Sequence record: MW175414.1
Length of the DNA: 64,000 nt
Reading direction: 5' to 3' (one strand)
Source of the DNA: Escherichia phage VEc25
Below the pieces are notes generated by a model. The model ran no database searches, had not been told where the DNA came from, and was given only the letters and a program-made list of their open reading frames with translations. Numbering within the stretch: position 1 is the stretch's first letter; each line of letters opens with the position of its first letter. A program made the translations under genes and the position numbers. Shown here in pieces: positions 15,392 to 18,666 of this stretch.

Positions 15392-17356
15392 ATGCGTCAC
15401 ATTACATTCAACAATGAGGGTATCTACCCTATTGCTATCCTTACTACAACGTTACGTAAGGATGATATTGTCAAAGCATACATGGAACCCTGGGATGTAG
15501 ATAAAGATTCAGTAATGATTCTTGAACTTCATACAGCCCCAGGGAAAAAGAAAACTCCTGCTAAAGAGATGCAGGAGTTTATTACCCAAGAATTAGTGCC
15601 AGCATTCGAAGCAGCACAAACTCAGTATATCATCTGTGGTGATTCTGAATATTACAAACAGCTAACCAAACAAGGTAAAGCTGATGCCAATATTGGCTAT
15701 GTAATGGATTGTGCTTATGGGAACCAGAAAGTTATTTACGTTCCCAATTACAGACAAATCTTTTATGACCCGGATAAGGTAAAGACTAAGATTGCTTTAT
15801 CTATGCAGGCTCTGATTGATTATGTCTCTGGTTCTTATGTTGAGCCAGGAACTAAGATTATCCACTATGCTGATTATCCATTAACTCCAGAAGCTATATC
15901 TAAGTGGTTAGATAAGTTACTGGAGATGAATGTTCCGTTAGCAGTGGATATAGAAACTTTCAGTCTGAAGCATTATGACTGTGGTATAGGCACTATTACA
16001 TTCTGCTGGAACAAGCATGAAGGGATTGCATTCCCTGTGGATTATGAACCAATTGAGGGGGCTACTGAAGCTCCTTATGGTAGACAAGTTCACAACATGC
16101 TTGTTCGTTCTATGCTCAGGGACTTTTTTATTAAGTATCTGAACAGGCAGATGTATCACAATATTGCCTTTGACGTATATGCACTCATTTACCAGTTATT
16201 TATGACAGACCTTCTGGATACGGAAGGGTTGTTGCATGGCATGAGTATCATGCTAAGAAACTGGGATTGCACTAAGTTAATTACCTATCTGGCCACTAAT
16301 TCTTGTGCTGGTAATAAGCTAAGTCTTAAAGACCAGGCTCAGGAATATGCTGGTAACTATGCTCAAGAAGAAATCAATGACATTACCAGAATCCCATTAG
16401 CAGAGTTGTTGGAATACAACTTAGTGGATGGATTATGTACCTGGTATGTCTATGAAAAGCATTGGGATACTCTGGTTAATGACCAACAGTTAGATGTTTA
16501 TACAAACATCTTTAAACCTGCATGTGAAGATATTATTCAAATGCAGTTAACTGGTATGCCTATCAATATGAAGACAGTATTGGAGGTAGAAGAGGCATTA
16601 ACCCAAGACTATAACAATGCGTTAAAAACAATTGCTGACAGTAAAGTAATCAAAGATTTTACCCGTCTTCTTAATGAAGAATGGGTAGAAAAACAGAACC
16701 AGATTCTGAAGAAGAAACGAGTGACTTTAGCTGATGCTAAAGAGCAGTTTAATCCAAACTCAGGTATTCAATTACAGAAGCTACTTTTTGAGTTTCTGGG
16801 GTTACCCGTACTGGGTCTGACTGCAAGTAAACTACCTGCTACTGGTAGTGGCATACTCAAGTCTTTGAAGAACCATACTCAAGATACCAGTATTCTGGAA
16901 ATTCTTGATGCTCTGATTGATTACAAAGCTGTAGATAAAATTCTGACAGCATTTATTCCAGCATTAAAAAATGCCAGACAAGGACCAGATGGTTGGCATT
17001 ATCTCTTTGGTAATCTGAACTTAGGTGGGACTGTATCAGGCCGTCTATCCAGTAGTGAACCAAACCTACAGAACCTACCTTCTGGTTCCAGATATGCCAA
17101 GATGATTAAAAAGTGTTTTGAGGCTCCCCCTGGGTGGATATTCTGTGGGCTAGACTTTGCTTCTCTCGAAGACCGTATATCTGCTTTAACAACCAAAGAC
17201 CCTAACAAGCTGAAGGTGTACATGGGTGTGACTGTTTATACAGTTACTATAGAAGGAGTTGACCATCATATCCGAGATGATGATACAATCGTTTATGATG
17301 GTAAAACTTATACCGGTGAGGAGTTCTATGACGCTTTTACCCGTGGCCTTCTATGA
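15392..17356 (+). CDS. Family-A DNA polymerase, N-terminal fragment (3'-5' exonuclease and motif A)
   Basis: ATG 15392 after GAGG; exo motif LAVDIETFS; motif A GLDFASLEDRI; the last ~40 codons do not look polymerase-like and stop at 17356. Confidence 0.7.
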   Translation: MRHITFNNEGIYPIAILTTTLRKDDIVKAYMEPWDVDKDSVMILELHTAPGKKKTPAKEMQEFITQELVPAFEAAQTQYIICGDSEYYKQLTKQGKADANIGYVMDCAYGNQKVIYVPNYRQIFYDPDKVKTKIALSMQALIDYVSGSYVEPGTKIIHYADYPLTPEAISKWLDKLLEMNVPLAVDIETFSLKHYDCGIGTITFCWNKHEGIAFPVDYEPIEGATEAPYGRQVHNMLVRSMLRDFFIKYLNRQMYHNIAFDVYALIYQLFMTDLLDTEGLLHGMSIMLRNWDCTKLITYLATNSCAGNKLSLKDQAQEYAGNYAQEEINDITRIPLAELLEYNLVDGLCTWYVYEKHWDTLVNDQQLDVYTNIFKPACEDIIQMQLTGMPINMKTVLEVEEALTQDYNNALKTIADSKVIKDFTRLLNEEWVEKQNQILKKKRVTLADAKEQFNPNSGIQLQKLLFEFLGLPVLGLTASKLPATGSGILKSLKNHTQDTSILEILDALIDYKAVDKILTAFIPALKNARQGPDGWHYLFGNLNLGGTVSGRLSSSEPNLQNLPSGSRYAKMIKKCFEAPPGWIFCGLDFASLEDRISALTTKDPNKLKVYMGVTVYTVTIEGVDHHIRDDDTIVYDGKTYTGEEFYDAFTRGLL

Positions 17357-17873
17357 ACAACGGTATAAGATTTCCGATGAAGGTTTCATCTTAAATCTTG
17401 CAAACAATCAACCCCTAAAACCGACTCTCAATCCTAACGGATACCTTAAGGTTGGGTTAGCTAATGGGGATGGTACACATCACCAAGAGCTACTTCATAT
17501 TCTGGTAGCTAAACACTTCATCCCTAATCCTTATGGCTATGAACAGGTGAACCATAAAGATGGTAATAAACTGCATTGTCATAAGGATAATCTGGAATGG
17601 TGCTCTGCTACTCAGAATGTTGAACATGCACTTAAAACAAGGCTACGTCCTGGTTACATGTCTGCTGACGATAAAGAAAAGTATCTCTTTGAGGTGCTGG
17701 CAGGTAAGCAAGTTAAAGACATTGCTTTTGAAATAGGTAGACGTCCTGAAACTTTGCATAAGATGCTCAGAACTACTGCTGACCGACTTGGTGTTCGAAA
17801 TGAGTGGGATGATGTTATGAGGAGAAATAGAAAAGATGTTGCTTTACGACAGCTTGCCAAAATCAACTCATGA
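17328..17873 (+). CDS. HNH homing endonuclease inserted within the DNA polymerase gene
   Basis: Track start 17259 is TTG; ATG 17328 with GAGGAG SD; NUMOD-like N-terminus (YKISDEGFILNL...NGYLKVGL) and HNH core HKDGNKLHCHKDNLEWCSATQNVEHAL; third frame relative to both polymerase fragments. Confidence 0.65.
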   Translation: MTLLPVAFYEQRYKISDEGFILNLANNQPLKPTLNPNGYLKVGLANGDGTHHQELLHILVAKHFIPNPYGYEQVNHKDGNKLHCHKDNLEWCSATQNVEHALKTRLRPGYMSADDKEKYLFEVLAGKQVKDIAFEIGRRPETLHKMLRTTADRLGVRNEWDDVMRRNRKDVALRQLAKINS

Positions 17874-18666
17874 CTTCACTGGCAAGAAAATTGACAACGT
17901 AGTCAAAGCCGGGAGTTCATCAGGTTACGACGGGCATAGTCTACGTGCATATGCTTACTTCGGTGAGATGATGCCTGACATTGAAGATACGGTAGAGTCT
18001 GTTAATTCTATTCAGGAGAAGTACAAAGCATATCGTCAGGATTCTAAAGCACCTACCTTTGCTCTTACCTATCAGGGCACGTATATCACTTTGATGAAGA
18101 ACTGTGGTTTCCCTGAACAGAAAGCTCGAATGGTTGAGGAACGTTATCACACACTTTATAAGGTAAGTGATGACTGGGTTCAGGCTAAACTAGACCAAGC
18201 TGCAAAAGATGGTTATGTAACCGTAGCATTTGGCCTGAGAGTCAGAACCCCCTTACTTCAACAAGTTATCCGTGGAACCAGTAAAACTCCTTATGAAGCT
18301 GAAGCTGAAGGACGTACTGCTGGTAATGCATTAGGCCAAAGTTGGTGTCTTCTGAATAACCGTGCTGGTTCAGAGTTCATGCGTAAGGTACGGAATAGTA
18401 AGCATCGTCTTGATATTCGTCCAAGTACCCATATCCATGATGCTCAGTATTTCCTTATCCGTGATGATATGGATGTTGTGATATATACCAATACTCATTT
18501 GGTGAAAGCAGTACAATGGCAAGACCATCCTGATATTGCTCATCCAGATGTTCATTTGGGTGGGGAACTCTCCTTATTCTACCCAACGTGGGCTAACGAG
18601 ATTGAGATTCCAAACTACGCTACGCCCGAACAAGTCCATGAAGCAATCCAAAAGGCATTTAAATGA
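17836..18666 (+). CDS. Family-A DNA polymerase, C-terminal fragment (motifs B and C)
   Basis: Motif B KAPTFALTYQG, motif C IHDAQYF; own ATG with GAGGAG 12 nt upstream. Confidence 0.65.
   Translation: MLLYDSLPKSTHDFTGKKIDNVVKAGSSSGYDGHSLRAYAYFGEMMPDIEDTVESVNSIQEKYKAYRQDSKAPTFALTYQGTYITLMKNCGFPEQKARMVEERYHTLYKVSDDWVQAKLDQAAKDGYVTVAFGLRVRTPLLQQVIRGTSKTPYEAEAEGRTAGNALGQSWCLLNNRAGSEFMRKVRNSKHRLDIRPSTHIHDAQYFLIRDDMDVVIYTNTHLVKAVQWQDHPDIAHPDVHLGGELSLFYPTWANEIEIPNYATPEQVHEAIQKAFK

Follow-up and report, generated by a model that had tools for sequence, protein, structure and literature searches.

A family-A DNA polymerase gene of the N4-type coliphage VEc25 split by an I-HmuI-type homing endonuclease cassette, whose conserved tail and head may reassemble the enzyme

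The HNH endonucleases I-HmuI, I-HmuII and I-BasI are encoded by group I introns that interrupt family-A DNA polymerase genes in the Bacillus phages SPO1, SP82 and Bastille, and the family-B DNA polymerase gp43 of Aeromonas T4-like phages is split into 43A and 43B. Similarly, the T4 topoisomerase gp39/gp60 is split by mobA (PMC3045599). In Aeromonas phage Aeh1, nrdA is split by mobE, and tails derived from the element are essential for the activity of the enzyme (Crona et al. 2011, PMC3045599); the authors raised the possibility that such tails derive from a degenerate intein (PMC3045599). Phage replication enzymes are also among the hosts of 'fractured genes' (2009, PMC2677866). In the G7C-like phage 10Gb, a homing endonuclease insertion in g39 was found by reverse transcription PCR to be unspliced (bioRxiv 10.1101/542787); two polypeptides were confirmed by matrix-assisted laser desorption/ionisation, a Shine-Dalgarno (SD) sequence and ATG were noted for the C-terminal fragment, and Rfam searches were negative (10.1101/542787). 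Here we describe a family-A DNA polymerase gene interrupted by an HNH endonuclease gene in 64,000 nt of Escherichia phage VEc25 (MW175414.1), an Enquatrovirus or N4-type coliphage; this whole stretch is referred to as the window.

The locus comprises three open reading frames (ORFs), which can be divided into the following features, with positions given along the window:

15392-17356, + strand: ORF1, 654 aa from the N4-equivalent start, with the exonuclease motif LAVDIETFS and motif A GLDFASLEDRI
15392..17221, + strand: DNA polymerase N-fragment proper, comprising the 3'-5' exonuclease, thumb and palm to motif A, ending ...KLKVY
17000..17226, + strand: divergent exon stretch, with 19 mismatches to N4 in ~226 nt against ~2% overall
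17222..17356, + strand: cassette-borne tail, 44 codons and a TGA stop in frame with the N-fragment, MGVTVYTVTIEGVDHHIRDDDTIVYDGKTYTGEEFYDAFTRGLL
17318..17323, + strand: SD-like GAGGAG, 4 nt 5' of the endonuclease ATG, a function suggested by its sequence
17328-17873, + strand: middle ORF, 181 aa in a different frame with NUMOD4 and HNH_3 domains, a free-standing homing endonuclease gene of the I-HmuI type
17820..17824, + strand: SD-like AGGAG, 11 nt 5' of the ORF2 ATG and within the endonuclease coding sequence, its function likewise putative
17836-18666, + strand: ORF2, 276 aa, with motif B KAPTFALTYQG and motif C IHDAQYF
17836..17922, + strand: cassette-borne head, the 29 codons that open the C-fragment, MLLYDSLPKSTHDFTGKKIDNVVKAGSSS
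17923..18666, + strand: DNA polymerase C-fragment proper, comprising the fingers with motif B and the palm with motif C
Empty site in N4, for comparison: AAACTGAAGGTGTATACCGATGGTTACGATGGGCAT

An earlier note on this DNA had proposed that an HNH gene breaks one polymerase into adjacent halves, with the polymerase motifs divided between two ORFs and the endonuclease in another frame, and each element of that description was borne out. The Pfam profile DNA_pol_A is matched over its positions 12-180 by ORF1 (E=2.3e-25) and over positions 200-303 by ORF2 (E=1.9e-8; 34.1 bits, relative to a cut-off of 34.3), and all motifs lie where they had been placed. Together, ORF1 and ORF2 constitute a family A (Pol I-type) polymerase, with the exonuclease motif and motifs A, B and C in order. 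The AlphaFold2 model of ORF1 has a mean predicted local distance difference test (pLDDT) score of 88, and its Foldseek matches are the Klenow fragment and Bst Pol I. The endonuclease ORF overlaps the end of ORF1 by 29 nt and the start of ORF2 by 38 nt. Both proposed translation signals were located, GAGGAG ahead of the endonuclease gene and an AGGAG and ATG belonging to the second fragment; the latter AGGAG has also been marked as a ribosome-binding site (RBS) by the annotators of phage Pollock, and production of two polypeptides is probable.

The polymerase of the window is collinear with the intact gp39 of phage N4 (EF056009), in which the DNA polymerase is a single ORF. The alignment to this intact gene, which had been suggested as a means of mapping the break point, has a single 695-nt gap (17228-17922), placing the insertion point between ...KLKVY and (TD)GYDGHSLRAY.... 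The inserted sequence, hereafter the cassette, encodes the tail (44 aa), the endonuclease in another frame and the head (29 aa). Phages 3HA13 and OLB145, like N4, have an uninterrupted polymerase gene. The possibility that the whole insertion is an in-frame intein was ruled out, as 695 nt is not a multiple of three.

An identical arrangement is present in 11 independently sequenced Enquatrovirus records at ~99% identity; across 15300-18700 of the window, identity is 99.1% to vB_Eco_SPSP, 99.0% to AlfredRasser/Bas69 and 98.8% to PMBT57 and the BEU phages. The same codon is also occupied in Pollock and Pylas (Humphriesvirinae) and in SP5M and PD205 (Gamaleyavirus), such that the occupied site spans five genera and two subfamilies. 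Recurrence in these four phages and in the 11 Enquatrovirus records rules out an artefact of assembly. All carriers keep separate stop and start signals for each fragment around the endonuclease gene, and those in the phage database are all isolated phages, presumably plaque-forming. The cassette was also found in 9 of the 80 best IMG/VR N4-like loci, with a full-length spacer in every one. In megablast, Pollock matches the window solely at 17151-18339, corresponding to the cassette and short flanks, and mismatches between the window and N4 cluster immediately upstream of the insertion. The raised divergence of this exon stretch probably represents a co-conversion tract left by homing, and the two patterns together have the appearance of a signature of horizontal spread with exon co-conversion. 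Through such co-conversion of its flanks, the cassette may disturb phylogenies of the Schitoviridae that are based on the polymerase.

Both halves of the polymerase are under strong purifying selection: relative to N4, the ratio of non-synonymous to synonymous differences per site (pN/pS) is 0.03 for the N-fragment and 0 for the C-fragment, which has 9 synonymous and 0 non-synonymous differences. The tail and head also evolve as coding sequence. Over the 35 tail codons free of overlap with the endonuclease gene, pN/pS is 0.06-0.53 in the ORF1 frame (15 pairs), compared with ~0.6-4 in both shifted frames, and differences at codon positions 1/2/3 number 1/1/9 between the window and Pollock and 0/3/12 between the window and SP5M. 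The 17 head codons free of endonuclease overlap have a coding signature in closer pairs that is weaker than that of the tail, and the signature is not seen in the most diverged pairs. It had been suggested that the last ~40 codons of ORF1 might be read-through derived from the insertion; their origin in the insertion stands, at 44 codons, but they are not idle read-through, being under purifying selection, conserved and predicted to fold.

The middle ORF reaches the Pfam cut-offs for NUMOD4 (23.8 bits; cut-off 23.4) and HNH_3 (26.1 bits; cut-off 24.8), and its residues 6-103 match I-HmuI (PDB 1U3E) at E=8e-10, identifying it by sequence as an HNH homing endonuclease of the I-HmuI type. It thereby resembles the intronic I-HmuI group in having a homologous endonuclease, with NUMOD4 and HNH domains, in the same family of host gene; it differs in that the endonuclease genes of that group lie within self-splicing introns, none of which is detectable here. 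Close orthologues (69-100% identity), relative to which pN/pS is 0.10-0.31, were found exclusively within N4-like polymerase genes. The shared site across carriers and the co-transferred exon flanks are indirect signs that the protein may cleave or nick the empty allele at this site and so drive homing. The nearest outgroup is an endonuclease of Bacillus phage BSP36, which is uninformative as to the origin of the cassette, being free-standing and outside any polymerase gene.

The tail and head belong to the cassette, and are absent from intact polymerases. When a tail profile (alignment A1) was run with HMMER against 1.84 billion representative proteins (50% identity clusters) at E<=1e-3, there were 85 matches, three of which are repetitive, unrelated proteins; all 69 that were inspected among the other 82 are fragments of N4-like polymerases. 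Nearly all genuine matches to the tail run almost to the C-terminus, stopping a few residues short at most (617-657 of 658, for instance). A few short gene calls run beyond the tail (P0177, P0208 and P0218), in the case of P0177 since the gene caller read TGA as Trp. A tail was never found inside an uninterrupted polymerase by tblastn against phages, a word-index search or the HMMER profile search. The head, with the consensus MSQFATLKRSTLEIPAGAxIxSVKKVGN-TDGYDGH, opens dozens of C-fragment clusters of 275-285 aa, many of them on roughly 70-kb contigs. AlphaFold2 predicts the tail to form a compact domain of four beta strands and a helix, with a pLDDT of 82-90 within ORF1 and 91 when folded alone from a 14-sequence alignment. 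All tails are acidic, with a net charge of -6 in the window and -1 to -7 across the family (mean -4.6; isoelectric point, pI, ~4.3-5.6), and heads are mostly basic (mean net charge +2; pI ~10). Subtypes are co-inherited: HHIRDD tails are found with STxEIP or STHDF heads, and ISED tails with SIKQIEN heads.

Past ...YFxxxMPDI, 20 codons further downstream, lies a second site with a homologous tail (CYKANVGGTDIWF...YTGKQFFD) and, behind it, an endonuclease gene homologous to that of the window (33% identity; E=5e-20). Some phages have both sites occupied and hence three-piece polymerases, whose middle pieces of 86-92 aa (P0170, P0200, P0210, P0217 and P0219) consist of a head, ~20 polymerase residues and a tail. 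The entire three-piece series is present on one contig (locus L100, positions 1-1399; coverage only ~2.7x); in this locus and in L099, an 87-aa middle ORF joins the head of the first site, ~20 polymerase residues (GYDGH...MPDI) and the tail of the second. The homologous modules at the second site and these middle pieces indicate that tail and head travel with the endonuclease gene. Tail and head would suffice to integrate even a polymerase piece of 20 residues. The split also persists after loss of the endonuclease gene: in L014 (340-660), the tail, stop, ATG and head are kept around a remnant of ~100 nt from the 3' end of the endonuclease gene, and the endonuclease gene of the second cassette in L100 has had its HNH domain deleted.

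The explanation we favour, with a probability of about 75%, is an unspliced two-subunit polymerase assembled by the tail and head that the cassette carries. It starts from what is observed of the locus, namely its anatomy, its homology, selection on every part, its distribution and its persistence after endonuclease loss. The cassette would have been copied into the conserved site between KVY and TDGYDGH, which lies between motif A and the fingers, presumably by repair of a double-strand break or nick initiated by its own I-HmuI-like HNH endonuclease. Carrier genomes would be immune thereafter, because the insertion destroys the endonuclease target. The mRNA would remain unspliced, with separate translation of the N-fragment and tail, of the endonuclease (from GAGGAG-N4-ATG) and of the head and C-fragment (from AGGAG-N11-ATG); translational coupling among the three is possible, as all three ORFs overlap. 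That two polypeptides are made and splicing does not occur is likely, and the polymerase products would be of ~75 kDa and ~31 kDa, rough estimates from ORF lengths. Neither would be active alone, since one has the aspartate of motif A and the other the residues of motifs B and C. Charge attraction and beta-strand complementation probably hold the acidic, self-folding tail to the basic, strand-forming head, re-joining the chain non-covalently at the cut point such that a single active site is formed in a two-subunit polymerase; such a clamp is somewhat better than an even prospect.

A number of points weigh against this account. We infer both the absence of splicing in this phage and the physical binding of tail to head. 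The AGGAG is rather far, at 11 nt, from the ORF2 ATG, and any role as an RBS is inseparable from coding constraint because it lies within conserved endonuclease coding sequence. Identity of the 10Gb insertion with the cassette of the window could not be confirmed; the preprint text searched gave neither an accession nor an insertion site, and no 10Gb record is among the listed cassette carriers. The insertion is also treated as an intron in the annotations of AlfredRasser and Pylas and in the Pollock announcement, on the basis of comparison with intact genes only. Annotators disagree on this, the polymerase being listed as two coding sequences (CDSs) in SPSP, SP5M, Pollock and PD205.

Such an intron, compact and self-splicing, of group I and with the HNH gene in a loop, would yield a full-length polymerase. 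The earlier note had kept this alternative, and it has some circumstantial appeal: the closest solved relative of the endonuclease, I-HmuI, is itself encoded in an intron of the SPO1 DNA polymerase gene, real group I introns occupy other sites of related N4-like polymerase genes, and annotators of three carriers chose the label. We now regard it as very unlikely. The Rfam covariance search for group I and II introns across the insertion, which had been suggested as a check, detected nothing intron-like: in permissive E-value mode, neither RF00028 nor any other intron was matched at E<=10 in window 17000-18100, and a scan of the window and four loci at gathering thresholds returned tRNAs only. 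By contrast, RF00028 was matched with 38 bits (E=8e-8, under the gathering score of 50) at 1991-2618 of the PhAPEC7 locus (L005) and with 27 bits (E=1.7e-4) at the first of two insertions in locus L009, and as these positive controls score, the method can see ORF-bearing introns in this polymerase gene family. The PhAPEC7 insertion differs from that of the window, being upstream of motif A and having an HNH ORF that overlaps the predicted intron core. The endonuclease ORF leaves only ~100 nt and 49 nt of the insertion uncovered on its two sides, and these flanks evolve as codons in the frames of the adjoining ORFs; a stop after the tail and a start codon at the head are family-wide, and derivatives that have lost the endonuclease gene retain the tail and head. 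At both junctions the RNA folds no better than its shuffled versions do (z = -0.07 and +0.8), hairpins that would mask either start site were not found beyond chance, and the 10Gb insertion, which is possibly related, is unspliced (10.1101/542787). Database records that give an intron and a joined CDS consequently predict a protein that is probably never made. As for the gene being merely broken, through decay to a pseudogene or an assembly error, with replication relying on another enzyme, the presence of stop codons is all that speaks for it; the same arrangement in the 11 independent Enquatrovirus genomes and in Pollock, Pylas, SP5M and PD205, the strong purifying selection on both halves and the presence of the arrangement in hundreds of metagenomic relatives, as found by both tail and head searches, leave this idea effectively refuted, with a negligible chance of being correct.

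It might alternatively be supposed that the tail and head are the halves of a very small, active split intein, which ligates one polymerase by trans-splicing. Fractured genes (PMC2677866) share this layout, in which a free-standing endonuclease gene separates N- and C-pieces that are both in frame. The residue directly before the conserved extein Thr is Asn in 16/27 heads and Gln in 5/27, and the acidic N-piece and basic C-piece have the polarity of DnaE split inteins. Real inteins also occur at another site in N4-like polymerases: P0147 and P0222 contain bona fide intein C-termini (VYDLEIEEDHCYIANDIYVHN and DHSYVGNGIVNHN, each followed by S; ...VHN before S) just before (S)(S)DPNL(T/Q), so polymerase genes of this type host true inteins too. 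However, tail and head amount to 73 residues, around half of the smallest Hint domain (at least ~125), and the first residue of the tail may be M, V, I, T, S or A, leaving no conserved nucleophile. The block B TxxH and block F/G motifs are absent, the motif of the tail family being HHIRDD; other heads have V, L, R or T before the extein Thr, and the window has Ser-Ser at this position, with a C-junction of SSS before G and no Asn. When the 10Gb gene was expressed, two fragments resulted, and a full-length product is not described in the preprint (10.1101/542787). Active trans-splicing at this locus is accordingly very unlikely.

Searches with the tail alone returned little that resembles an intein. 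The tail profile had no HMMER match in PDB, and the tail had none in Pfam at E<=10; hhalign of the tail against eight N-inteins gave a probability of 0.3%, although the intein sequences used make this a weak control. Foldseek of the tail model against PDB found no inteins. Its best match, non-significant at E=0.5, was a chain from the central domain of topoisomerase II of phage T4; this enzyme is split by mobA and bears tail-like extensions (PMC3045599). A tentative proposal, which we consider possible but doubtful, is that a split intein has degenerated until only its association core survives, as tail and head. The tail would then be the part of the N-intein just before the point of endonuclease insertion and the head the matching C-intein strand, and the core and the I-HmuI-like endonuclease gene would now move together, as a 'cut-and-clamp' cassette that is portable. 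If true, the possession of its own high-affinity clamp would let the cassette break an essential gene at new sites while the phage survives, which would explain both its occurrence at two sites separated by 20 codons and the existence of three-piece polymerases, whose 87-aa middle piece has only ~20 polymerase residues. It would also provide an evolutionary link among inteins, fractured genes and splicing-free 'genes in pieces'.

Under the favoured account of non-covalent assembly, the closest parallel is with Aeh1. In both cases a free-standing homing endonuclease gene lies in a conserved essential gene that is translated as two separate fragments, with oppositely charged, element-derived tails that are absent from intact homologues and that, in Aeh1, are needed to rebuild the enzyme. 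As with Aeh1 NrdA, the extensions of the fragments are absent from intact homologues, derive from the element and are under selection. The host enzyme is a ribonucleotide reductase in Aeh1 but a family-A DNA polymerase here, and the polarity of charge is reversed; moreover, Aeh1 is a single occurrence, whereas the 44-aa tail, a conserved domain with a predicted fold, is present in 85 clusters and at two sites. Phage 10Gb shares the host gene, an N4-like DNA polymerase, and an insertion encoding a homing endonuclease, which is ~800 bp as opposed to 695 bp here; the tails were not analysed in that work (10.1101/542787). Fractured genes have the same DNA layout, including a C-piece with its own start, and the tail weakly resembles Hint folds in structure. 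The pieces here are nevertheless much shorter than a Hint domain requires, with neither its catalytic residues nor sequence similarity to inteins, and assembly is probably non-covalent; the endonuclease is of the HNH/I-HmuI type, whereas a Vsr-like family is found in half of fractured-gene loci (PMC2677866). The split gp43 and gp39/gp60 are alike in that a replication enzyme is made as two polypeptides following an insertion linked to a mobile element, although the enzymes and elements differ.

The split itself is already recorded in GenBank annotations and the Pollock announcement, with a possibly identical case in the 10Gb preprint, and the fragmentation of genes by homing endonucleases with rescue by element-derived tails is an established concept. 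Searches of the literature on split polymerases of N4-like phages or Enquatrovirus found annotation-level mentions only. No prior description was found of the tail and head as a large, conserved module family with a predicted fold, of such a family apparently moving with an I-HmuI-like endonuclease gene between two sites in the polymerase, or of its persistence after decay of that gene, and these aspects appear to be new. The locus shows how an essential replication enzyme may tolerate being cut by selfish DNA in the absence of RNA or protein splicing. Element-carried assembly tags are the proposed answer, for which biochemical demonstration has so far come only from the Aeh1 ribonucleotide reductase; as the tags here form a large conserved family at two sites, the idea becomes testable and general. 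Were binding to prove tight, tail and head, at 44 and ~29 residues, would form a small heterodimerising pair of natural origin, which might find use in split-protein engineering.

N4-like polymerase genes are also interrupted at other points. Between SSS(D/E)P and NLQN lies an insertion resembling a group I intron, at 4154-5001 of L009 (RF00028, 27 bits) and also at 1-190 of L014; it carries a NUMOD4/HNH/AP2 endonuclease gene, its hosts are metagenomic N4-like polymerases, and it accounts for the many 'MNLQNIP...' ORFs of ~95 aa. A further break lies within motif A, as P0142, P0167, P0176, P0199, P0202, P0214 and P0216 begin at or just before ...VEDRI(N/S)ALLTKD. With the other sites, the stretch between SGRLSS and motif B thus has at least five distinct points of insertion. 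Additionally, in four unrelated metagenomic contigs a disruption falls exactly on motif B, between TFALT and Y(Q/G)G:

L100, ~1380-1400: 4-nt frameshift
L098, ~3555-3600: ~45 extra nt
L012, ~2619-2643: frame change
L010, 6055-7115: insertion of >1 kb

These may be errors, the contigs being of low coverage or scaffolded, though the coincidence of site is striking.

Upstream of the split gene, the polymerase frame is already open from an ATG at 15305, 87 nt before the N4-equivalent start at 15392, and the frame so extended overlaps the end of a gp38-like ORF (14857-15384). Elsewhere in the window, four tRNA genes are clustered on the + strand at 25706-26381 (Rfam tRNA, 50-78 bits).

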